Notes: generated by a model from the letters alone, not told the origin. A stretch of 64,000 nucleotides of DNA from an uncultured candidate division Zixibacteria bacterium (GCA_963702205.1 OY969724.1:3488001-3552000), one strand, 5' to 3'. Shown: positions 47,243-58,546, numbered from the stretch's first letter. A program made the numbers and translations.

Positions 47243-48681
47243 TTGCTCACCCCCACCTTGATCTGGCGGAACCGAGCTGGCGACGTTCCGTGCGCCACGT
47301 GGGCCGATTGCATCGGCTCTCCCTTCCCGCAGTTGGGCACGCCCCACACATGCCAGTTATTTTTATTGCAGATAGCATCGCAGGAATTCCAGAACTTGGG
47401 CGTCATGGCCGTGTAAAGAGGGTTTTTGTACATCTTGCCCAGCTTGCCATTCTTGATTTCCCAGGCACACTCCACACCGAACTGGAAATTGAGCCGCTGA
47501 TCGTCGATCGACCACGACTTATTGGCATCGAAGAAAATGCCGTCGGCGGTATCGGCGATTAGATCGTCAAGCTCCCATTCGCCCGGTTCAAGATTGATAT
47601 TGGTCATGCGAATGAGCGGTACCCGGTTCCACCCGTCGGCTCGCATCGTACCGTTGGAGCGCTGACCGATAACCGGTGCGGTCTCGCGACTGGTTTGATA
47701 CCCGACATGCACGCCGTTTTGAATTATCGGAGCCCGCTGCGCCTTGACACCTTCGTCGTCGTAACCGAACGACCCGAGGCCGCCTTCGACCGTAGCATCG
47801 GCGAAAATGTTGACGATGTCGGAACCGTACTTGAGCTTGTTCAAGCCGTCGATCTGCATGAATGAACCGCCGGCCAGCGAAATTTCGGTCCCGAGAACGC
47901 GGTCGAGTTCGGTCGGATGACCGCACGATTCATGTACCTGCAAAGCCATCTGCGAACCGCAGATGATAATGTCCTTGACCGTATCGGGACAAGCCTCGGC
48001 GGTCAGAAGCTGTAACGCTTCCTCGCGCACCCGGTCGACGTGATCCGGCAATTTCAGGCTTTCGATAAATTCATAACCCAGGGTCGCGAAATCGCCCCTG
48101 TGCGAGTTTGGATATGAGCGCTTTTGCACGTCGTTGCCGTCGTACGCTATGGCCTCATACCCGGCACCGGATTCGAGCAGGTCCTGTTCGATCTCGGCGC
48201 CTTCAGTGGAACAGAAAACCTTGTTGTACTTGAAAAAGTCCATCGACCCCGAAGCCGTCTTGATGCGGTCGTCGGTTTTGAGTTTGTCGCAGATTTCCAG
48301 CAGCAGGCCCATCTTTTCATCGAGCGGGACAGCGAACGGGTCTTTGGCAAACCTGGTCTTGTAATGATCCTTGAACGCTTCCTGTTCGGCGAGACGGACC
48401 GCCTCTTTCTTGGTTGTGGCCGAGGCACGGGCTATCTGAAGAGCCTTGTTGGCGGTTTTCTTGATATCGCCATCCCTGGTCGACGCGATCGAGGCAAAGC
48501 CCCAGGCCCCGTTATAGAGCACCCGGACGCCGACCCCGACATTGACTTCGCGGTTGAGCGTATCGACCGTGCCGTCGGTCACCCGGACGGATTCGGTTTC
48601 CTTCCGGACGTACCGGCAATCGGCATAATCGACCGATTTGCCTTTGAGCCAGTCGAGCGCGTTTGATAATTTATCTTTCAT
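47239..48681 (-). CDS. tldD: TldD family metalloprotease
   Basis: HESCGHPTELDR, GYDDEGV, RMTNINL, NCGKGEP. Confidence 0.92.
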   Translation of the reverse strand: MKDKLSNALDWLKGKSVDYADCRYVRKETESVRVTDGTVDTLNREVNVGVGVRVLYNGAWGFASIASTRDGDIKKTANKALQIARASATTKKEAVRLAEQEAFKDHYKTRFAKDPFAVPLDEKMGLLLEICDKLKTDDRIKTASGSMDFFKYNKVFCSTEGAEIEQDLLESGAGYEAIAYDGNDVQKRSYPNSHRGDFATLGYEFIESLKLPDHVDRVREEALQLLTAEACPDTVKDIIICGSQMALQVHESCGHPTELDRVLGTEISLAGGSFMQIDGLNKLKYGSDIVNIFADATVEGGLGSFGYDDEGVKAQRAPIIQNGVHVGYQTSRETAPVIGQRSNGTMRADGWNRVPLIRMTNINLEPGEWELDDLIADTADGIFFDANKSWSIDDQRLNFQFGVECAWEIKNGKLGKMYKNPLYTAMTPKFWNSCDAICNKNNWHVWGVPNCGKGEPMQSAHVAHGTSPARFRQIKVGVSK

Positions 48682-48817
48682 CCTTCCTCCAAAACACGGA
48701 TTGATATTTCACATGCAGAAATTACGGATTTTTAATTTACGAGTTTTGAAAAATAAAATCAAGGAGGGAAAATAAAACCAAAATCGTAAAATCCGAGGTT
48801 AATTCAAAAATGTCAAC

Positions 48818-48861
48818 TCGTAAATTACGATTTGAAATTCGTTGGTCCTCGTAAATTACGA
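48818..48861. promoter_or_regulatory. Paired palindromic enhancer sites TCGTAAATTACGA (48818-30, 48849-61)
   Basis: Two 13-bp palindromes 31 bp apart; architecture repeated at 53983-54026. Confidence 0.8.
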
Positions 48862-48961
48862 GATAACCTCCTTAACATCTATCTGCTCTATCTTTATGTA
48901 TTCATAAATTTGACGTTTATTGACAAAGGCTTACGAGCCAATTTTTTGTCACATTCATTAT

Positions 48962-48977
48962 CGGCACAAATCTTGAT
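48962..48977 (+). promoter_or_regulatory. Sigma54-type -24/-12 promoter
   Basis: CGGCAC-N5-TTGAT (GG to GA spacing 12); near-identical copies at 54127 and 56532. Confidence 0.7.
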
Positions 48978-49004
48978 TTACAATTTTATGACATCATGAC
49001 AGGT

Positions 49005-49103
49005 AGACATACCCAGCCTGTACCTATTGGTTAATCGAGGCCGGAAATACATCGGGCCGGTCGGATGGCGACCGCCCGATCCGGCCATAAATTGGAAGGG
49101 GGT
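49005..49103 (+). repeat. Conserved structured leader, copy 1
   Basis: AGCCTGTACCTATTGGTTAATCGAGGCCGGA..ATCGGGC..GACCGCCCGATCCGGC..GAAGGGGGT shared with 54171-54271. Confidence 0.85.
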
Positions 49104-49186
49104 TTATTATTGGATTATTGGATCGAAAATTCACGCGGTTTAATCCGCAGAAATCATTTGCATTTTTAAAGTGGAAGGAGTAAACT

Positions 49187-50113
49187 ATGTTTAAGGGAAG
49201 GCTCTTTAAAGCAGTTTCATTGTTAATCGTGGTGGCCATGATGAACCTTATGGTAGCATGTAGCACATCCAAAGCCCCGACCGGGGAAAATTCGTCAATT
49301 GATAAAAATCGGATTGATTCAGCGCCGCTGACCGGCGCAGATAATATGGACACACAAATTCAGTATGTAGGCAATAACACGATTAAAACCTTCGAGTTAC
49401 CGAATGGGGTCAGCATTGACATAACTGACTACAAAGTTTCCGATGACAACTATGTTATAAGATTCCAATATAATTCGTCCGGCATTATCGTAATCCGCGA
49501 CGCCGTCATTTCGTTCGATTTTACAAAATTAAATCTATATGATCTTTTTGGTAACAGGATTTATCATTACGCCGTCAATTTGGCGGAGGACAGCAATTCC
49601 GTCGATTTTACGTATGACACAGATCAGGATGAACTCATTGTTTCTTATTACACCAATGAAACGAGGCGAAGATACGAATTCATGGGCGATGTTGTCGATA
49701 TTTCATTTGAAAACGAAGATCAATTGGACAGCGCAGGATGGTTATTTCAGAATTATACGGAAGAAAACAAGTTCATATTATCGCAGGATGATCTTGCATT
49801 ATACGAAAAAATAGCCAGCGTAAATCAATTGTTTTCGGCACCAAGTTCATTTACGGATAATACAGACGCCGAGGTTTCAGCTTATATGGTAGGATATGAA
49901 CCGTTTATAAAGTGGGCATTCACGCATGACAATGAGCCATCAATGAAAATGAAATATCCAAAATGGTGGAATCCGTTTTGTCATGTTGCAAATTACGCGA
50001 CACTAACGTGTGCCTGCTGGTTTACGGGTTTGTGCATAATCATTTGCGTCCCGGCTGTCGGAATTTCAATAGTGTGCGAAGTCACATATTGGTATGATGT
50101 CTTTAGCAAATAG
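49187..50113 (+). CDS. Lipoprotein with C-terminal twin-CX9C hydrophobic tail (putative toxin/bacteriocin precursor)
   Basis: MVAC lipobox, acidic body, PKW..C-x9-C..C-x9-C tail; RBS AAGGAG. Confidence 0.75.
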   Translation: MFKGRLFKAVSLLIVVAMMNLMVACSTSKAPTGENSSIDKNRIDSAPLTGADNMDTQIQYVGNNTIKTFELPNGVSIDITDYKVSDDNYVIRFQYNSSGIIVIRDAVISFDFTKLNLYDLFGNRIYHYAVNLAEDSNSVDFTYDTDQDELIVSYYTNETRRRYEFMGDVVDISFENEDQLDSAGWLFQNYTEENKFILSQDDLALYEKIASVNQLFSAPSSFTDNTDAEVSAYMVGYEPFIKWAFTHDNEPSMKMKYPKWWNPFCHVANYATLTCACWFTGLCIIICVPAVGISIVCEVTYWYDVFSK

Positions 50114-50122
50114 GAGGGGAAA

Positions 50123-50368
50123 ATGCCTTATGTCGTCAGCGTATTAAGTCTGCTATCTATGCTTTGCGGGGTGGTATTCATAATTATTGGATATTCACAA
50201 CACAATCCCGAAAAAAGCCTGTTCAGTTTTAAAAACCCCTTTAACCCGCTCAAAATGCGGCCATGGTTTAAAAGTAACTGGGGATACAAATTCGGTATAT
50301 CCGGCGGCTTTTTATTAGCATTTGGCGGATTACTTGGATTGGTTCGCCAATGGATAATGAAGGGTTAA
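50123..50368 (+). CDS. Small two-TM protein (putative immunity)
   Basis: RBS GGAGGG 9 nt after the upstream stop; two hydrophobic helices around NPFNP..WF...GY. Confidence 0.7.
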   Translation: MPYVVSVLSLLSMLCGVVFIIIGYSQHNPEKSLFSFKNPFNPLKMRPWFKSNWGYKFGISGGFLLAFGGLLGLVRQWIMKG

Positions 50369-50395
50369 GTATATCTAAGCGAAGATATACGCAAT

Positions 50396-50434
50396 ATTGA
50401 TGGTCAGGTGCCACCTGCGCACCTGATCATCAAT
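50396..50434. repeat. Palindrome sharing a TCAGGTG/CACCTGA core with the 721-769 hairpin
   Basis: ATTGATGGTCAGGTG-9nt-CACCTGATCATCAAT. Confidence 0.6.
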
Positions 50435-50535
50435 AGAAAGTTATGTGAAGCGATTACATCAATTGTTGTCGTTTGCTATGTCACAAAAATTACCGGCGCG
50501 GACGCGGCGGCGCCTTAAAAGAATGAAAGGACAAT

Positions 50536-50772
50536 ATGGCACAGCATTTAACAAAATGGTCTCTGCCGCAATTCATCATCACTGTCATTATGGGCGCCTT
50601 ACTATTTAAAGGCGCGGACTATCTCCTTAAATCAGGAAATGGCGACACTCTGGTTATTGCAAGCGGTATGTTAATTACAGTCGGCTACTCAGATTTAATA
50701 ACGGTTTTGCTCAGGCTATGCAAGAAGGAAAAGTCTGAAAAAAAGCGGGCCGAGCCGCAGAATCAATCCTGA
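50536..50772 (+). CDS. Small two-TM protein
   Basis: RBS AAAGGA; two hydrophobic segments and a basic tail. Confidence 0.6.
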   Translation: MAQHLTKWSLPQFIITVIMGALLFKGADYLLKSGNGDTLVIASGMLITVGYSDLITVLLRLCKKEKSEKKRAEPQNQS

Positions 50773-50799
50773 TTGCTTCCGTTTGAAAGGAGTCATAGT

Positions 50800-51090
50800 A
50801 TGGGTGTAATTTCTATAATCCTTCAAATTGTATCGTTGGCAGCTTTGGTTGCCGGATTGATCCTTATGGTCTCTTCGCGCAAATACAGAACACAGGAATA
50901 TCCACGGATGACTTTAGCGAACTTGTTTAATCCCAAATACTGGATCCCGTTCTGGAAAGCGCAGCAGTGGTTTACTCCGGGCGGCTTCAGGATGTATTTT
51001 TGCGGGGTGATTTTTGCCGAACTTGGCGCAATTACATTATTAATTAATAGCTACCTTGAACACGGGCAAATACTGGGGATAAGATTTTAA
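50800..51090 (+). CDS. Small two-TM protein (putative immunity)
   Basis: RBS AAGGAG; NLFNP..WF.PGGF loop similar to 50123-50368. Confidence 0.7.
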   Translation: MGVISIILQIVSLAALVAGLILMVSSRKYRTQEYPRMTLANLFNPKYWIPFWKAQQWFTPGGFRMYFCGVIFAELGAITLLINSYLEHGQILGIRF

Positions 51091-51188
51091 AGATTCGGTT
51101 GCGCTGGAGATGACGTGCGATCTCCGCTCTATCGGTGTAACCGGTTACGCCGCATTCACTTTGTCAATTTTTGTCACAATATTACTCC

Positions 51189-51217
51189 TTGACAAAGTTT
51201 TAATCACTTTATATAAT
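51189..51217 (+). promoter_or_regulatory. Perfect-consensus sigma70 promoter for the peptide/EBP operon
   Basis: TTGACA-17bp-TATAAT. Confidence 0.75.
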
Positions 51218-51456
51218 TTTATAGAAATAGGCCAAAAGGGCTGGGATTATATTTCTAAGATTCTTTCAACGTCTGTCCGATAATTAAACCAGCCATATAA
51301 ATGGTCACAATTGAACGGGGGTGGATCGTTTTATTTTCTGAAGCGGCATCATTGAAGCGACATCACAATTGGTTCGAAAGCAAATTTAACAAATTAAAGA
51401 TAAGACCTCACACATACGGGGGATGTGAATAAAATCTAATTGGTGAGGAGACAAAT

Positions 51457-51801
51457 ATGAAAATGATAAAGACGACTTTCGCGGCAATATTGCTGATGTT
51501 GTTGTTAACCTCAATATCTTCAGCCTGGCAACCGCCGCCGATTAATGGGCCGATTAGAATAAGTGATGTTGATGGACATCCGTGGGGAGGAACTTCTGTT
51601 GAATGTGATATTCTGAATCCATCTGAAAAAGCTTATTCGTTGAATGAAAATATTGGATTTCTGATTGAATCAGCATCAATCAACTTGATACAACTGATAT
51701 TCCCCAACTTTAAAATTAGCATTAGCGGGAAAACCGACAATTTAATAAATTGGAATAGGGTATCATCGGAAGATGAAAGAAACAATAGCGGAAAACCTTA
51801 A
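51457..51801 (+). CDS. Small secreted protein (putative signalling pro-peptide)
   Basis: RBS GAGGAG; Sec signal ending SSA; WQPPP..DGHPWGG; overlaps the EBP start by 29 nt. Confidence 0.7.
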   Translation: MKMIKTTFAAILLMLLLTSISSAWQPPPINGPIRISDVDGHPWGGTSVECDILNPSEKAYSLNENIGFLIESASINLIQLIFPNFKISISGKTDNLINWNRVSSEDERNNSGKP

Positions 51802-53938
51802 TGCGATTAAAGGGCTGATCGGTGAAAAGAAATTCTCTGAAGCACTGATCGAAATTGAAAACATCGAGATATCGCAATCAAATAATGCCGAATATGCCTA
51901 CTATTGTTTGATATATGCCGATATCAAACTCTGGTTGGGTGATTATAATAGTATTATTCCATATCTTAATACTGCCTTAAATTATTATAAGACCAGTGCG
52001 GACAATCAATATTATGCGCAAGCGAAATATTTGCAGGGGAAGTACTTGGTCTTTATTGGTCAGCGGATAAATGCGCAGGAAAAGCTTTTGGAAGCTTACC
52101 TGAATTTCAAGAGATACGAAGATTTAGAATCGGCTCAGCGAGTTTTAAATTATTTGGCTTTTGTCCAGCATCAGGGCGGAGCAATTAACGATGCCATATT
52201 GAATATTCGAAAGTGTATTGAAATCAACCAGAATTTGGGGAAATTGGATAATGTTTTAACGCTTAAACGCAACTTGGCTTTGGTGCAATTGACTTGCGGA
52301 CAGATTCAATCTGCCTTGATGCAACAAAAAGAAATTGGACGGGAAATTGCAAATGCAAGAATCAATGACAGGGGTCAGTATTACCTTATTTTATCGTTAG
52401 TTTTAGGACACCTTGGCGATATTAATAGCGCCCGCGAAAAGATGGCAATGGCCTTACCTTGTTTAGATGATTACCAACGCGAACACGCCATCTATTATGA
52501 ATATCTCGGCTGGATATATAATCTCGATGGGCAATATGATAAGGCTGAAAAAGCCCTCAAATCTGGACTTGAGGTCGCCCTGAAGATTGCTCCGGAAGGC
52601 GATCTCGTCTCCCAAATAAAACGCCTCCTGGCCGACGCCTATTTAGGTCTGAAACAATACGACAATGCATATTCGACCGCCGAAGAAGCGCTCAAAGTCG
52701 CAGAGAAAATAAACGAACGAGCCGAAATTGCAGCCTGTTATCGTGTGTTTGCTCAAGTGGAACAACAGCGAAGAATAAGTAACAAAGCGCGTGAGTGGTA
52801 CAAGAAAGCGGTTGATTTATTTAAACTAATCCAATCCCGCTATGAGCTGGCCGCGACACAATATCTTATGGCTGAATCGAACTTATATGGTCCTCAGGAA
52901 CGAACCGCCCTGTTATACATGGCAAAAGAGTATTTCGAAGCCGAGGATATCAAACCATATATTAATAAGATTAAGACCCTTGAATCGGCTCAGCACAAAA
53001 ATCCAAAGACTGTACCGTTAAAAGCCAATACCGACGGACAACAAGCGGTGCCGCGATTTATCGCGGTCCACCCCGCCACGAAAAAAATTGTCGATATGGC
53101 CGATCACATCGCCGGTTGCAATATGACGGTGCTCTTAACCGGCCCGACCGGATCGGGCAAAGACCATCTCGCCGCCTATATCCACGAGCAATCCGGACGA
53201 ACCGGCGAATTCGTAACCATCAATTGCGCCGCGATTCCCGACAGTATGGTCGAAGCCGAGCTTTTCGGCTACGCCAAAGGAGCTTTCACCGGGGCGGATG
53301 GTGAAAAAACCGGCCTTCTCGAACACGCCGACGGTGGGACGGTGTACTTAAACGAAATCGGCGACGGCACCGAAGCGTTGCAGGCAAAGCTGCTGGAAGT
53401 CATAGAAACGCGGCGGATCAGACGCCTCGGCTCGACTGAATCGAGACAGGTAGACATAAGATTTATCGCCGCCACGTGTCACGACCTTAAAGAGCGAATC
53501 CAAAACGGCAAATTCCGGCTGGATTTGTACCATCGCCTGAACGAAATTCCGATATTTCTTCCCCCTCTCGACGAACGCAAAGATGACATCCCCGAGCTGG
53601 TGCGTCACTATCTCTCGTCCATGGATGCATCCATAAAGGCCGGGAACGGCGACCTCGAATACGCCCGCCTTTGCGAACTGCTGGTTGACCGAACCTGGGC
53701 AGGCAACATCCGGGAACTTCGGCTAAAATTAAACTGGCTGCACAAAATGTTCGGGTCGGACATATCCGGCATGGTTGACCACCTGGAAGCTCAGGAATTG
53801 AGCGATCGTGAACTGCTGCTTAAGACACTCGAGGAAACCGGCTGGAACCGCTCGGAGACGGCCCGTCGCCTCGGAGTCACCGAGGGAACCGTACGGTATC
53901 GCATCGCTAAATATAATCTTGTCGAACGGGTCACGTAA
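51773..53938 (+). CDS. TPR-containing sigma54-dependent enhancer-binding protein (Fis HTH)
   Basis: About 400 aa of TPR-like repeats; [61 protein letters not shown]. Confidence 0.93.
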
Positions 53939-53982
53939 TCCTCAGGTTTTCTTTTTTATCATTCAAACCAGCATTCCAGAAT

Positions 53983-54026
53983 TCGTAATTTACGAGTTTT
54001 TGCGAATGTGACCTCGTAATTTACGA
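53983..54026. promoter_or_regulatory. Paired palindromic enhancer sites TCGTAATTTACGA (53983-95, 54014-26)
   Basis: Same 13-bp palindrome, 31-bp spacing and 114-bp distance to the promoter GG as at 48818-48861. Confidence 0.8.
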
Positions 54027-54126
54027 ATCGGGACAATATACTCCATTATTATTCAGGCTCTGTTTATATCTCCTAATTAATTATAGGGCAACCAATTATA
54101 ATCTTGTTCAATCGGTTGTCCAAAAT

Positions 54127-54142
54127 CGGCACAACATTTGAT
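54127..54142 (+). promoter_or_regulatory. Sigma54-type -24/-12 promoter
   Basis: CGGCAC-AACAT-TTGAT. Confidence 0.7.
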
Positions 54143-54170
54143 TTATACTTTTTAAGATATGGGGAAGGAC

Positions 54171-54271
54171 AGACATTCCAAGCCTGTACCTATTGGTTAA
54201 TCGAGGCCGGAGAATAATCGGGCTGGCCCGAAAATGACCGCCCGATCCGGCTCATAGATCGGAAAGGGGGT
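54171..54271 (+). repeat. Conserved structured leader, copy 2
   Basis: High identity to 49005-49103, including the GCCGG/CCGGC and ATCGGGC/GCCCGAT stems. Confidence 0.85.
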
Positions 54272-54361
54272 AGATATAGCGGTTTAAAAATTACAATGAA
54301 AATTACGCAAATTCGTCCGTAAAAAACCACTTGCATCTTAAAAAGGAAGGGGTAAGGGATT

Positions 54362-55273
54362 ATGCGCACCAGGGCGTTATTAATTTTGGCTGCCTTTTTA
54401 TTGGGGCTGTTTATGGTGGCATGCAATGATGCCAAAATTCCGACAAATCATTCAAATAACATCATCCCGTATAATACTAAAATCATTTCACTTTCGGATG
54501 AGATGAAGCTGGAAGATAATATCAAAGCGGGCTTTAATCCCAATCCACTCCTGGTTGATACGCTTTCTAATAATACAATAGTAATCGTTAATCAGGCCAG
54601 TACAATGGGAGACATCGTTACCGCATATTTCACCTATATTCCCGAAAACGAATCTCCACGTGAACGTATTATCAAATTGCATAAATCACTATATTCATTA
54701 GCGCTTTATGATAATAGTGGAATATTGCTGTGCGGCTATGATGCAACCCAGTCGGATTCCAATAATGTGAATTTATCGGTTTTCAGTGAAAACTTCAAAT
54801 TAGGCATTTCCACGCCAATAGAAGGCAACGGCAATTTGAAGTTTGAAGTTATCTGCGATGGTGTACATGCCTATACGGAGTTCGCCAATGAAGCTGTTTT
54901 CGACTCTGCCATTAGTATTTATGAAAATGTCTATGACAATGGGTACAATAGGGAGCTTTTATCGCCCGAACAACTTGAGTTATTGACTAAATTGGAAAAT
55001 TTCAATGTGTGCTCAGGCATATTCGATGAAATAGACGAATCAGAGGTAGACATTTCCAAGGTTCTGGCCGGGAGTAAACAGTTTAAAGAAGCCATCGGCA
55101 TATCAGATTCGGGCAACTCAGTTATATCAGAAATGCCAAAATGGCTGAAAAAAATATGCACAATTGTCAATTACGCCAAAAAAATCTGCAGCATAATTGG
55201 CAATACTGTGATATGTGAATATGTTGAGATATTAAGTATTATCTGTGATATGCTCGCGGAAATATTCGAGTAA
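54362..55273 (+). CDS. Lipoprotein with C-terminal twin-CX9C tail (paralog of 49187-50113)
   Basis: MVAC lipobox; PKWLKKIC-TIVNYAKKI-C..IC-EYVEILSII-C. Confidence 0.75.
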   Translation: MRTRALLILAAFLLGLFMVACNDAKIPTNHSNNIIPYNTKIISLSDEMKLEDNIKAGFNPNPLLVDTLSNNTIVIVNQASTMGDIVTAYFTYIPENESPRERIIKLHKSLYSLALYDNSGILLCGYDATQSDSNNVNLSVFSENFKLGISTPIEGNGNLKFEVICDGVHAYTEFANEAVFDSAISIYENVYDNGYNRELLSPEQLELLTKLENFNVCSGIFDEIDESEVDISKVLAGSKQFKEAIGISDSGNSVISEMPKWLKKICTIVNYAKKICSIIGNTVICEYVEILSIICDMLAEIFE

Positions 55274-55306
55274 TCATAACCCCCCCACGATTCCGCCAGG
55301 CGACGG

Positions 55307-56314
55307 CTATCTGGTCGTCGTCTCGTTTTTTAACATAAGTCCTTTCGGCAATACAAACAAGCTGTCGGCCAGGTTCCGCTTTTCGAGATTTATTACTTCG
55401 TTAGAAAATGATATAAAATTTATGAGCGAATCGTTCGATCCGGATCCGAACAGCTTTTGGAACATTGTGAGGAAATGTGTTTCAAACGAATTAGAAGTCG
55501 AATCCATAGAGTCGGGACTATCGCCAGCAGTTGATAATTCATCCGGCGCATTAAAGAGGCCAACTCCGGCTTTTGCATTTAGATCAAATTTCATGATGAT
55601 ACGGCCGAAGACCAATGATCTGCGCACGAGTTCTTTCAAGTGCAATTTTAATATATCACGAAAGCCTTCCACGTCATCGAGGTCTGATTCGGCAACGCCG
55701 GCAAAATCATTTAAGCCGAAACCATGCCTCTGATTTATCTGATAATTTCGGTAAATATTCATGGCGGGAAAGCTATCACATATCCAGATATTTGTTACCA
55801 TTAACATTGAATCAGTCAGGGAGGGTTTGCAACAGGAGTAGAGGCTCACTCGATAACACGGGTATCCGTTAATTGTATCCGGTACGTTCGATGCATCCAG
55901 TGTCGTAATCCAGGTATATTCACCATTTGATGTATCCTGCGGAAACTTGAATGACACAAATCCGGTATCAATCGGACCTTGGGAATCATCGGGCATTGGA
56001 CTCAAATCGGTTATATCATAAGTATTGGCTAACAAATCAATATTCCAGGCGGTCTGACTGCCATAATCCTCTATGGAAAGCGTACTTTCGGCATTGGACT
56101 CAGGATCAAATCGGGATAATCCGTATGGTTCCGATACGCATTCATTGCGGGTCTTATTGTCTGTAATAAAGTCCACCATTTGACTTGTTTCCCCACCCAT
56201 ACCCATAAAATTGCAATTCAGTTTGCTATTGATTACAAGTCCTTCTTCGGCCGTACCGGTCGAAAAGAAAATAACCAAAAGCAGCGCCGCCGGTAGCAAT
56301 GAATTCATTTTCAT
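55307..56314 (-). CDS. Secreted hypothetical protein (DUF4412/GLPGLI-like features)
   Basis: Signal peptide; DTINGYPC, IWIC, C-terminal DSLFVLPKG; RBS AGGAGG. Confidence 0.65.
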   Translation of the reverse strand: MKMNSLLPAALLLVIFFSTGTAEEGLVINSKLNCNFMGMGGETSQMVDFITDNKTRNECVSEPYGLSRFDPESNAESTLSIEDYGSQTAWNIDLLANTYDITDLSPMPDDSQGPIDTGFVSFKFPQDTSNGEYTWITTLDASNVPDTINGYPCYRVSLYSCCKPSLTDSMLMVTNIWICDSFPAMNIYRNYQINQRHGFGLNDFAGVAESDLDDVEGFRDILKLHLKELVRRSLVFGRIIMKFDLNAKAGVGLFNAPDELSTAGDSPDSMDSTSNSFETHFLTMFQKLFGSGSNDSLINFISFSNEVINLEKRNLADSLFVLPKGLMLKNETTTR

Positions 56315-56531
56315 GAACGCCCTCCTTTAGATGATAAAAATAATATACTGCAATCAACCCCAAATTTCAAATAATTTTCGGCAATAATCAGAGCAGGTGA
56401 ACTTGGCATCAATTACTTTCATTTACTTTCATTCCCTTATCTCGTCACATGTCAAGTCGACCATTTTAAATTCGTGCACAAAGCATTTATTCATAATGAC
56501 ATGCAATTCCATTTTTTGTCACGTGCATCTT

Positions 56532-56546
56532 CGGCACGGCATTTGA
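56532..56546 (+). promoter_or_regulatory. Third sigma54-type promoter
   Basis: TTTTTTGTCAC-N8-TCGGCAC-GGCAT-TTGA; flanks match the 48962 promoter. Confidence 0.6.
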
Positions 56547-56647: not shown

Positions 56648-57460
56648 ATGCGAATGAACCGACTTAAAACGACTTACCAGCGGAATTTGTTGCTGGGACA
56701 GGGGGTGTCGCTTTTGATCGCGGCCATTGCGATATCGCTGATGCTCTCATTGCAGAAATCTTATGTCACCATTGATCTGCAGGATAAAAAATGTTCGGAG
56801 TCGTTTCCCGCGGCCCTGGACAAGGCACCACATAATGGGGGAAATGCTATTCATATTCGGTCGTTGTCCGGCGTCCGGATTGATGCGGTAGCCGGTAATG
56901 GATACAACATAGTGAATTATCCTAACTACTCCCCCGATTTTGGCAAAACTGACATTGATAGGGGCGATTTTATGATTTTCGGTGATTATTACGGCAATTC
57001 TGGCGGTGGCTTGAATCCAGTAATCAAATCCGGGGATACTTCGGATGCCTGGCCGATAGCGAACAAGCATACTTTTTTGCAGGATTATTCGATTGAGTCC
57101 TTCTTGTCCGATCGCGTCATTACTCCACCCGGCGAAAACCGCCCCTTAATAATCAATTTAGTCAAACCGCAATACCCCGGCCGCCTTCGTTATAATTGCG
57201 ATGCCATTGTGAAGCTTGGGTTTTCTGTCACCGAGAAAGGGTTTATAGGAAAAATCGATATTATCAACGAGGACCCGGTGGGTTTTGGATTTGCCCTCGC
57301 GGTGAAGGAAGCCTTAAGAAACAGTTGGATATGGCCAGCCGTAAAAGACGGTCATAAAATTGGGGCATATTATACCTTAACATACGAATTTTGCGAAAAG
57401 TGTCCGGACAAGCCGGTCGTTGTCGAATCCGAGGGCGATGTCGTTGTTACCATAAAATAA
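56648..57460 (+). CDS. TonB-family protein (N-terminal TM, TonB_C domain)
   Basis: LKTTYQR..TM; KPQYP..VKLGFSVTEKG..EDPVGFGFALAVKEAL..WPAVKDG. Confidence 0.75.
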   Translation: MRMNRLKTTYQRNLLLGQGVSLLIAAIAISLMLSLQKSYVTIDLQDKKCSESFPAALDKAPHNGGNAIHIRSLSGVRIDAVAGNGYNIVNYPNYSPDFGKTDIDRGDFMIFGDYYGNSGGGLNPVIKSGDTSDAWPIANKHTFLQDYSIESFLSDRVITPPGENRPLIINLVKPQYPGRLRYNCDAIVKLGFSVTEKGFIGKIDIINEDPVGFGFALAVKEALRNSWIWPAVKDGHKIGAYYTLTYEFCEKCPDKPVVVESEGDVVVTIK

Positions 57461-57546
57461 AGTGCGAAAGTATCATGCCGGCATTGAAGTCTAAATGCTA
57501 TTGCGATGGTAAGGTACATATAACAATATATTGTTGGAGGATTTCA

Positions 57547-57729
57547 ATGGTTGCCGTCGAGTATTATTTCGACGAAGTCGAAATTGTCACGCAACGGAAC
57601 TCCATTATAATCCCAGAGTCCTGCCGTAAACCCGAGAATATTTTAAACAATCTCTTGATTGATGCGTGTATTATATACCGGAACGATCCGAGGTATATCA
57701 TCCCCTTCCGAACATCGTTTTGGAGGTAA
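57547..57729 (+). CDS. Small hypothetical protein (60 aa)
   Basis: GGAGG RBS before ATG; stop abuts the next start. Confidence 0.4.
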   Translation: MVAVEYYFDEVEIVTQRNSIIIPESCRKPENILNNLLIDACIIYRNDPRYIIPFRTSFWR

Positions 57730-57730
57730 T

Positions 57731-58546
57731 TTGACTGTCAGCCCCTTAAAAACAAGTTACCAGAAATCGATTATCGCAGGATTGCTGGCCAGTTCGCTGG
57801 CCATGATTGCGGCGGCGATATTCCTGTCCAATGCCGGTTCCTTGGAACGACCCGTGAAAATACGAACGGACAAAAGTATTTATACGATCGTCTGGGCTAA
57901 AAGCAGGGATCGATCGCAAGACAACTGTGTAAGTGAAAGTTCTCCTCCGGCCGAGACCTCAAACGAATCCAATGCCAAAAGGACCATGCCCGAAACTCAG
58001 GATATTGATTCACATCATGCCGTAAACGAAAGCCCTGTCCCGGCGGGATTTTCACTGGCGCAGTATACGACCGGTGCGTACGGGATGAACATGAACATAA
58101 CCGTGCCCACGCAAAACGCTCCGGAATTTGTACCAATGCCTGGCAATGGATTAACCTACGGTGCTAATTCAGACGGTACACGGGACATGGAAATGCCGTT
58201 CGGAAATATGAGCCATCAACCTCTTTTCATAAAATTATTCAGCCTTAAAGCTCCGGATGAGTGCAAGGTGCGTCAGGATACAGTCATAGTATTGCTGAAT
58301 ATAGATGACAAGGCACAAATTAAGAGCATAGAGACCATTTATGACAGCAACCCGGGCAACGGATTTGATACAAATTTCAAGAATGCCATTCGCTATGCTC
58401 ATATCAGACCCGAAATAAAGGACGGCTTGCCAGTCGGAGGAAGTTATTATTTATGCTGGATATGGGGCGAACATGGCCGCGTGGGGGTCAAAAATGCCGA
58501 GAATATTCGCATTCAGTTGGTACCGATCAACCGTGCAGGTTTTTAA
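57731..58546 (+). CDS. TonB-family protein, paralog of 56648-57460
   Basis: TTG start after GGAGG; LKTSYQK..TM; SNPGNGFD..AIR..PEIKDGLPVG. Confidence 0.65.
   Translation: MTVSPLKTSYQKSIIAGLLASSLAMIAAAIFLSNAGSLERPVKIRTDKSIYTIVWAKSRDRSQDNCVSESSPPAETSNESNAKRTMPETQDIDSHHAVNESPVPAGFSLAQYTTGAYGMNMNITVPTQNAPEFVPMPGNGLTYGANSDGTRDMEMPFGNMSHQPLFIKLFSLKAPDECKVRQDTVIVLLNIDDKAQIKSIETIYDSNPGNGFDTNFKNAIRYAHIRPEIKDGLPVGGSYYLCWIWGEHGRVGVKNAENIRIQLVPINRAGF

Follow-up and report, generated by a model that had tools for sequence, protein, structure and literature searches.

Receiver, PAS, GAF or comparable domains normally control the activators of sigma-54-dependent transcription, which in the NtrC type, as at the promoter glnAp2, act from enhancer sites near -140 and -108. 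Accessory proteins that feed back on such activators are also known, namely ZraP with ZraS/ZraR and PspA with PspF, ZraP being periplasmic. The locus described here, from a Zixibacteria bacterium, appears to use instead a large MalT-like tetratricopeptide repeat (TPR) solenoid paired with a small exported protein of fixed motif. It lies in a stretch of 64,000 nucleotides (genome positions 3488001-3552000 of a single 3.98-Mb contig), hereafter the window, whose numbering is used throughout unless genome positions are specified, and every gene between 48818 and 55323 is on the plus strand, as are the control elements placed there. A central pair of genes, for a small exported protein (s114) and a TPR-containing sigma-54 activator, is flanked by the genes of two lipoproteins, lipoA and lipoB, and the whole is probably best explained, with moderate confidence, as a dedicated sigma-54 regulon. 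The activator would bind two 13-bp palindromes three helical turns apart, the -24 element following ~145 and 114 bp downstream of them, and by DNA looping and ATP hydrolysis would open three -24/-12 promoters, those of lipoA-m81-m78-m105, of lipoB and of a third operon of exported proteins. Its own gene would be transcribed from a near-consensus sigma-70 promoter, s114 would most likely serve the TPR sensor as input or feedback, and the two paralogous lipoproteins would act outside the cytoplasm, on or in membranes.

The activator gene (51773-53938) encodes a protein of 721 amino acids (aa), comprising a MalT-like TPR sensor (residues 1 to ~410), an AAA+ domain with the GAFTGA loop and a Fis-type helix-turn-helix (HTH). 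When the 10 open reading frames (ORFs) of the locus were scanned against Pfam and NCBIfam, it was matched in Pfam by TPR_12 (expectation value, E, 6.1e-17), Sigma54_activat (PF00158, E 1.6e-58), AAA_lid_14 and HTH_8 (E 1.5e-11), and in NCBIfam by generic sigma-54 activator models only, all far under their cut-offs. The gene of s114 (51457-51801; 114 aa, putative Sec-type signal peptide, motif D-G-H-P-W-G-G) overlaps it by 29 nt. An earlier note on this DNA had described exactly such a secreted protein overlapping a TPR-AAA+-HTH activator, and both the positions and the domains bear it out. GAFTGA and the Walker A motif GPTGSGK are seen when the activator is aligned with NtrC-family chains, and most of the features expected of sigma-54 enhancer-binding proteins are found: an AAA+ domain carrying both motifs, an HTH accompanied by upstream dyads, and rpoN accompanied by GG promoters. 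The activator resembles those of NtrC-type promoters such as glnAp2 in its GAFTGA AAA+ domain and C-terminal Fis-type HTH, and in two dyads that are separated by about three helical turns and precede a -24/-12 promoter by more than 100 bp. On the contrary, it has neither a receiver domain nor a kinase, a MalT-like TPR solenoid of ~410 aa being present instead; its Walker B motif carries NE for DE across the ortholog clade; and its targets are lipoprotein rather than nitrogen genes.

Upstream of lipoA (49187-50113), two 13-bp palindromes TCGTAAATTACGA occupy 48818-48830 and 48849-48861, 31 bp from start to start, and upstream of lipoB (54362-55273) two palindromes TCGTAATTTACGA occupy 53983-53995 and 54014-54026, likewise 31 bp apart. 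Each pair is followed by a CGGCAC-N5-TTGA match to a -24/-12 type promoter (48962-48976 and 54127-54141), of presumed sigma-54 dependence, the distance from the start of the second palindrome to GGCAC-N5-TTGA (48963 and 54128) being 114 bp at both lipoprotein genes. Together with the probably structured leader that follows each promoter (see below), this agrees with the shared upstream architecture that had been claimed for the two genes. The palindrome TCGTAAWTTACGA has four copies in the window (48818, 48849, 53983 and 54014) against 0.18 expected, and none of 100 shuffled sequences gave four.

The genome-wide scan for palindrome and promoter that had been proposed was carried out, and it yielded five perfect 13-mers and one with an outer base changed and its 11-bp core intact; these six copies form exactly three 31-bp pairs in the 3.98-Mb genome. 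The third pair (genome 3597380 and 3597411) lies outside the window, 55 kb off, and is oriented to the minus strand; ~113 bp past it, TGGCAT-N5-TTGT is followed by two ORFs, one of 268 aa whose N-terminus is hydrophobic and one of 97 aa with a single transmembrane segment. The gene rpoN is present, its Sigma54_DBD domain scoring above the cut-off at genome 1473241-1473716 (L058) in two overlapping frames; the open frames there, of 457 and 125 aa, point to a frameshift or an assembly error.

In many genera, activator orthologs are adjoined by palindrome pairs with a spacing of 30-32 bp. At 12 promoters of 10 loci, the window included, the pair is placed at -143 to -147 and -112 to -117 from a -24/-12-like TGG or CGG, variants being a locus with the pair ~13 bp closer (L023) and a third palindrome in sister genomes G001 and G003; at two ortholog loci the search for palindrome sites found none. 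CGTA half-sites go with an HTH whose second helix begins with '[ST]EG' in 13/13 loci, and CGCA half-sites with SES, AES or SDT there in all three loci that have them, from three genera. The earlier note had taken the parts to form one system, and this is supported by enhancer-promoter sites at lipoA, lipoB and the third operon only, by the recurrence of the architecture beside activator orthologs elsewhere, and by half-site and HTH changing together. Gene and site anatomy, the uniqueness of the sites in the genome and their conservation are direct observations, and a single regulon of activator, enhancer, three promoters and exported outputs appears well supported, as far as sequence alone allows. 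Because there are three sites in 4 Mb, with fixed geometry and covarying half-sites and HTH, the regulon could be rebuilt in E. coli without culturing the organism.

Several observations weigh against this reading. (i) GGCAC-N5-TTGA alone is not rare: the genome has 45 copies, and three fall within the window, where 0.36 would be expected. Moreover, the -12 element is TTGA, not TTGC. (ii) The canonical Walker B motif hhhhDE is replaced in the activator, whose VYLNEI stands opposite LFLDEV and ILLDEI in the alignment with activators of known structure; the NE lies at N527-E528 (53351-53356), and the Asn is invariant in 16/16 aligned orthologs. The NE could weaken ATP hydrolysis; an Asp-to-Asn change at this position abolishes hydrolysis by NtrC, so that the clade may work unusually. 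DE is found in 7/7 readable sequences of the paralogous activator clade (13 of its 20 not being matched by the regular expression) and in seven other activators of the same genome readable by pattern. (iii) The related genomes are kin, so that counts across them are descriptive, carry no statistical test and overstate independence. (iv) No public sequencing run, RNA runs included, is listed as holding 48700-55400.

Orthologs of the activator (best E <= 1e-120) occur in 20/40 related genomes, several of which have two or three copies, and the full-length matches listed are 38-58% identical. Its N-terminal 420 residues match 150 proteins at E <= 1e-5; among the 120 listed, nearly all are of ~700 aa and share its set of domains, and where a name is given it is 'sigma 54-interacting transcriptional regulator' or similar. 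A paralogous clade, 29-31% identical and of ~745-790 aa, is present in most genomes, including that of the window (genome 518084-520264). In both clades the activator is accompanied by a small exported protein. Directly upstream in 15/20 fetched ortholog loci lies a signal-peptide ORF of 74-136 aa, in which a Pro is invariant, a Trp nearly so (P-F in L024), and acidic residues precede them; in 19/21 loci of the paralogous clade an ORF with [DE][DE](H/Q)PWGG[ED] takes this place, usually 2 bp from the activator start, one of the two exceptions being a locus at a contig end and the other a locus without such an ORF. The neighbourhood search that had been recommended thus recovers the co-occurrence of TPR-sigma54 activator and signal-peptide ORF.

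Signal peptides and lipoboxes were called from sequence by eye, by a hydropathy script and by regular expression; the N-terminus of s114, basic and then hydrophobic with an A-x-A-like site, was read by eye and with the script. Relatives of s114 range from 74 to ~146 aa, and family f4 has three loci at which the motif is followed almost at once by the end of the protein (..PPWDIPGQ, ..WPWTEPGQ and ..GWDVPEE). A profile of the small protein gave 13 matches among 5.8 billion proteins, the sole name among them being 'exported hypothetical protein'. The conserved core is, by these comparisons, a two-gene cassette of activator and small exported protein with an acidic-(H)PWGG motif. Since the pairing is kept in both activator clades across the order, s114 would most likely provide input or feedback to the sensor, and conservation argues that the exported partner matters to it, through re-import of a fragment or contact before export. 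The paralogous cassette of the window's own genome spans genome 518084-520670, with a 119-aa exported protein of motif D-E-H-P-W-G-G placed 2 bp upstream of the 29%-identical activator, and a CGT-N5-ACG pair, 29 bp apart, lies just upstream of it at genome 520482. At L015 (8322-8480), a palindrome pair and TGGTAC-N5-TTGC are found ~600 bp upstream of the small-protein/activator operon, which suggests autoregulation of the operon in that genus; ahead of s114 in the window, no palindrome-pair/-24/-12 site was found.

The TPR domain is modelled as an all-helical solenoid with a predicted local distance difference test (pLDDT) of 91, a superhelical TPR-like sensor of ~370-410 residues as in MalT-type sensors. 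Its best structural match (rank 1, E 3e-8, TM score 0.66/0.74) is MalT domain III (1hz4), superposed with a root-mean-square deviation of 5.0 over 374 columns; LGN/Pins, TONSOKU and subunits of APC follow, with NprR at rank 32 and RapI at rank 42 (TM scores of 0.45 and 0.39). When sequence profiles are compared, the TPRs of kinesin light chain and LGN come out as the closest relatives of known structure, and a Rap phosphatase is matched with E 4e-5. PF17874 (TPR_MalT) is precomputed on most relatives of the activator and is not among the matches of our own Pfam scan at E <= 0.01. The sensor is accordingly taken as a solenoid that binds a ligand or peptide, its fold alone being insufficient to name the ligand. 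Prediction of a complex between TPR residues 1-420 and mature s114 (24-114), both with alignments and without controls, scored 0.00 twice and weighs neither way. As in MalT, a ligand-sensing solenoid would govern the oligomerisation of an ATPase that activates transcription; MalT differs in joining it to a STAND NTPase and a LuxR-type DNA-binding domain, where a sigma-54 AAA+ domain, a Fis-type HTH and sigma-54-type promoters are found here.

Two points speak against s114 as a directly read signal: MalT domain III, the best match of the sensor, is a small-molecule sensor, and, the small protein being exported and the sensor cytoplasmic, a direct link needs re-import or contact before export. 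One alternative survives better than the others, although we consider it rather doubtful: s114 would merely be co-expressed with the activator, perhaps as a periplasmic factor; the TPR domain would sense a cytoplasmic small molecule or protein, in the manner of MalT domain III; and the lipoproteins, with a TULIP-like fold, would serve the envelope or handle lipids. The MalT-like fold and the listing of PF17874 on most relatives agree with it; on the contrary, the retention of position and motif next to activators only 29-31% identical is unexpected for a passenger. As for its lipoprotein part, the AlphaFold model of lipoA (pLDDT 76.6, from an alignment of 9 sequences only) combines a sheet of ten antiparallel strands (67-173) with six helices, besides a linker that is disordered, and a wider aligner placed Der p 7 (Z 7.5), YceB (Z 7.2), CETP, BPI and others (Z 5-5.6), OrfX2, SPLUNC1, juvenile hormone-binding protein and P47 among its first 16 rows. 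Der p 7, YceB, CETP, BPI, SPLUNC1, juvenile hormone-binding protein and OrfX2/P47 are proteins which we take to share the TULIP lipid-binding fold, in which a long curved antiparallel sheet wraps helices and encloses a hydrophobic cavity. Like them, the model has a long curved antiparallel sheet packed on helices, and YceB is also a lipoprotein. Nonetheless, the likeness is weak: all matches, at 7-10% identity, are below Z 8, a range that the tool calls a possibly common arrangement, the order of sheet and helices is another one, the stapled C-terminal hairpin of lipoA has no counterpart among them, and Foldseek found no match to the model in the PDB at E <= 0.001. In the ESM Atlas, lipoA matched unnamed 'Lipoprotein' clusters only, at 0.83-0.85, under the level the tool regards as meaningful.

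It seems unlikely, but is worth setting out, that the small exported protein is a signal precursor read directly by the TPR domain, in the manner of the RRNPP pairs (Rap, NprR, PlcR or PrgX with Phr, NprX or PapR) and acting through a sigma-54 engine. Such quorum sensing would have the small protein exported and cut and its acidic-HPWGG fragment re-imported; the fragment would bind the concave TPR face and free the AAA+ domain for assembly, turning on a regulon of exported products at high density, a scheme to which we give little credence as a whole. The RRNPP criteria, in the part of the survey that states them, are a Sec-exported propeptide of 10-100 aa, a TPR receptor of 250-500 aa and adjacency within -60 to 400 bp (PMC10075063). 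The locus agrees with three of the five signature criteria drawn from that text (PMC10075063), in that the receptor carries TPRs, the two genes adjoin at -28 bp, which is the 29-nt overlap, and s114 has what looks like a Sec-type leader. The gene of a Sec-type small protein adjoining that of a cytoplasmic TPR regulator is indeed the arrangement of RRNPP pairs, and it is kept in two activator clades; the C-terminal motif of the three f4-family loci is placed as in most RRNPP signals, according to the same portion of the survey (PMC10075063). Positive feedback would follow from the enhancer and promoter ahead of the L015 operon, the classifiable regulated genes encode exported proteins, a subtilase with dockerin among them, and the sequence profile of the TPR domain finds those of kinesin light chain and LGN, which bind peptides, as well as a Rap phosphatase. 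Against this, the receptor, fused to a sigma-54 AAA+ engine, has 721 aa rather than 250-500, and s114 has 114 aa where 10-100 are allowed and 21-50 validated, as the survey's stated limits go (PMC10075063); the motif is internal in most loci; NprR and RapI are only middling by fold, behind MalT domain III; and the host belongs to the Zixibacteria, RRNPP systems being placed, in the passages of the survey that treat their distribution, only in Gram-positive Firmicutes and their mobile elements (PMC10075063).

Contact before export could take the form of secretion-coupled feedback, following the logic of FlgM, ExsE and SecM, in which the unexported precursor would bind the TPR domain, Sec export would remove it, and regulon output would follow free export capacity. 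This would account, without an importer, for a Sec-type small protein overlapping and co-transcribed with a cytoplasmic TPR regulator, for the mostly exported and variable targets, and for a conserved motif in the mature part, outside the signal peptide. It is nevertheless quite improbable: the evidence is purely logical, we know of no precedent with a sigma-54 activator, and it leaves unexplained why the motif is C-terminal at three loci. The accessory proteins ZraP and PspA offer a looser comparison; they too are small proteins encoded beside a sigma-54 activator, but ZraP acts via a membrane kinase and PspA is cytoplasmic, whereas the partner here has a signal peptide. Among the listed and scanned ORFs of the locus no membrane sensor gene was recognised, nor any sequence similarity to ZraP or PspA in Pfam and NCBIfam.

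Returning to s114 as the probable input of a dedicated regulon, the earlier note was right not to recognise the system as one already described: Pfam and NCBIfam gave no family names for it, and no matching literature was found. In particular, no paper on Zixibacteria and sigma-54 was found, and among the titles listed for regulatory domains of bacterial enhancer-binding proteins none named a TPR-regulated activator, the single mention of TPR, in the section retrieved, being a COG category in Planctomycetes (PMC12316311). If the small protein is the signal, the known range of peptide sensing would be wider and a compact, orthogonal sigma-54 switch would be at hand; there would also be a fusion of receptor and output in a phylum for which the consulted part of the survey describes no RRNPP systems (PMC10075063), in a two-clade cassette with freely exchangeable exported cargo. 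Even otherwise, a new activator subfamily, a lipoprotein family of ~240 clusters and a genus-specific leader RNA would be gained, all without names today.

The same cassette appears plugged before very different exported proteins across genomes. At the locus itself the outputs are lipoA (308 aa, lipobox MVAC, beta-sheet at 67-173, helices at 177-307 and a hydrophobic Cys-stapled C-terminal hairpin) and lipoB (303 aa, lipobox MVAC, amphipathic Cys-stapled tail), which are 25% identical (E 1e-13), so that two diverged lipoprotein genes do flank the central pair; the claim that their tails are homologous is also upheld, the four tail Cys being invariant across the 9 family members of the seed alignment. 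A word-based search with lipoA gave 4 proteins, and an exhaustive profile search gave 242 cluster representatives (E <= 1e-3) among 1.84 billion, those listed being mostly of ~300 aa. Of 151 representatives examined, 104 have a lipobox by pattern, and the last 60 residues mostly contain 4, 6 or 8 Cys. The family is present in 8/41 genomes, and in five of the seven other than the window's its genes lie within 2 kb of an activator ortholog, a second outcome of the neighbourhood search; in the remaining two they are on contigs of 3-5 kb. C-terminal sorting signals such as PEP-CTERM, MYXO-CTERM or the type IX secretion system C-terminal domain consist of one helix plus a basic tail; as an explanation of the lipoA tail they were rejected, the tail having two helices, paired Cys and an acidic end.

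Other cargo of activator orthologs includes a subtilase with dockerin together with a PD40-repeat lipoprotein, an FGE-sulfatase/PEGA protein, secreted proteins of 1350-1675 aa, ~350-aa lipoproteins starting C-C-D-D-C-x-D-C-P-x-C and, in one operon, a Yip1-domain protein that is followed by a protein related to that of the third operon and by a secreted peptide of 71 aa with six Cys. Regulated genes thus vary, and nearly all that can be classified seem to encode exported proteins, judging by signal peptide or lipobox (by eye and script). The 71-aa ORF (L011, 2441-2656, from a sister genome) is the last of its operon, which stands behind an enhancer of this type; the ORF has a signal peptide and a 45-aa mature part with 6 Cys, rich in Trp, Tyr and Phe. 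Lipoproteins with a start similar to C-C-D-D-C-x-D-C-P-x-C were also noticed by eye beside activator orthologs in L012 and L015, one of them with a weak PD40 repeat. In L022 (11663-13573), downstream of the activator ortholog, a lipoprotein whose hydrophobic tail is rich in Gly and Cys is followed by a six-transmembrane-segment Rce1-like/CPBP protein (PF02517, E 9.5e-14).

After lipoA come the genes of three small proteins with two transmembrane segments each, as had been reported: m81 (50123-50368, 81 aa, of a family with a W-F-T-P-x-G loop), m78 (50536-50772, 78 aa, aligning poorly with the m81/m105 family) and m105 (50773-51090, of the m81 family, with a likely start at ATG 50800 that gives 96 aa). 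Members of this family, to which m81 and m105 both belong, have ~80-100 aa and occur in 19/41 genomes; they lie within 1 kb of a lipoA-type gene in 6/8 genomes that have one, and also solitarily beside unrelated genes, in two genomes at the same position next to an 892-aa protein. Neither Pfam nor NCBIfam gave a family for the lipoproteins, the small membrane proteins or s114, apart from one sub-threshold NCBIfam match of m105 (E 0.0076, 16.5 bits against a cut-off of 45).

The lipoproteins might instead be bacteriocin-like membrane-active proteins, with the stapled tail as the active part and the two-transmembrane-segment proteins after lipoA as immunity proteins. In loci of class II bacteriocins and microcins, the gene of a small precursor, which bears a double-glycine or Sec leader, has an immunity gene next to it and is served by a C39-ABC exporter of its own, and the Rce1-like/CPBP family has been linked to bacteriocin immunity. 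There is circumstantial support in the ~45-aa hydrophobic hairpin tail and the predominance of even Cys counts (4, 6, 8) among the 151 representatives, in fast evolution (the paralogs are 25% identical and members within the genus 44%, where the activator reaches 57%), in the patchy distribution of the family, in one to three copies of a small two-transmembrane-segment gene close to lipoA-type genes, in the CPBP protein after a Cys-tailed lipoprotein in L022, and in the six-Cys peptide that ends the sister-genome operon. Nonetheless, an antagonism system with toxin and immunity genes, as the earlier note had envisaged, is improbable: (i) no toxin, bacteriocin, C39 peptidase or ABC exporter domain is found in the 10 ORFs with Pfam and NCBIfam; (ii) the presumed precursors have ~300 aa and a lipobox, not a double-glycine leader; (iii) the Cys tail, which would be the active part, is modelled as the last two helices within a folded domain, although with 10-residue pLDDT means of 60-85 it is the least confident structured part; and (iv) lipoB has an amphipathic tail and no small membrane gene downstream, which with the small membrane genes also standing beside unrelated genes weakens the immunity reading.

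Between promoter and start codon, lipoA and lipoB share a conserved leader. Covariance model R1 matches leader A at 49000-49123 (124.2 bits; the full leader extends to the start codon at 49187) and leader B at 54166-54290 (125.6 bits). The upstream regions are 79% identical, far exceeding the identity of the coding regions downstream, with a near-invariant block at 49010-49115 and 54175-54280. A search of Rfam with 48000-56500 gave no family at E <= 1, and leader words occur in the genome at the two window sites only. A covariance model from four leaders found nine strong copies in 3 genomes of the window organism's genus and one marginal match (E 9.8e-4, 26.2 bits) in a fourth genome, of another genus, with no match in 37 of the 41 genomes searched. 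Some copies stand behind the same enhancer and promoter yet ahead of different lipoprotein genes; in sister genomes G001 and G003 the enhancer-promoter-leader cassette precedes C-C-D-D-C-x-D-C-P-x-C lipoproteins (L078 1907-2980, L081 127-1185 and L082 430-1482). In the leader alignment 97.8% of cells pair, and 5/26 pairs are changed on both sides, which none of 500 shuffles reached, although the alignment was fitted to the very model under test and its copies are related, which counts against these figures; slid controls gave 27-56% pairing. As the alignment leans towards structure and the copies are related, the claim is confined to a conserved, probably structured and genus-specific leader RNA. 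Other genera have different leaders, with a GC-rich hairpin by eye. A leader-peptide reading was rejected by eye, the short frames not being conserved between leaders A and B.

The operon of s114 and the activator is preceded by a match to a sigma-70-type promoter, TTGACA-17-TATAAT (51189-51217), that agrees with the consensus at 12/12 positions. A 9-bp inverted repeat, CTTTGTCAA at 51159-51167 and TTGACAAAG at 51189-51197, is located there and may be an operator, since its second arm overlaps the -35 hexamer. The lipoB unit is closed by a terminator-like hairpin of 11 pairs and a T run (55298-55323). Another hairpin (50397-50433), with 14-bp arms TTGATGGTCAGGTG and CACCTGATCATCAA, a 9-nt loop and 13/14 positions paired, sits in the 167-bp gap between m81 and m78, with no T run after it. 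Beyond the locus, a third GGCAC-N5-TTGA of the window (56533-56546) lies 100 bp before the gene of a protein of 270 aa, which is matched weakly (E 1e-3 to 1e-4) by the TonB C-terminal domain, and as no palindrome pair is found upstream it was left out of the regulon. The 270-aa TonB-C-like protein is followed by a 295-aa paralog, the two lying within 56648-58546. At L070, in a sister genome, relatives of these TonB-C-like proteins and of m78, m81 and m105 lie together, and by inspection, unscored, m78 is similar to a 75-aa ORF that a sister genome has next to a TonB-C-like gene.

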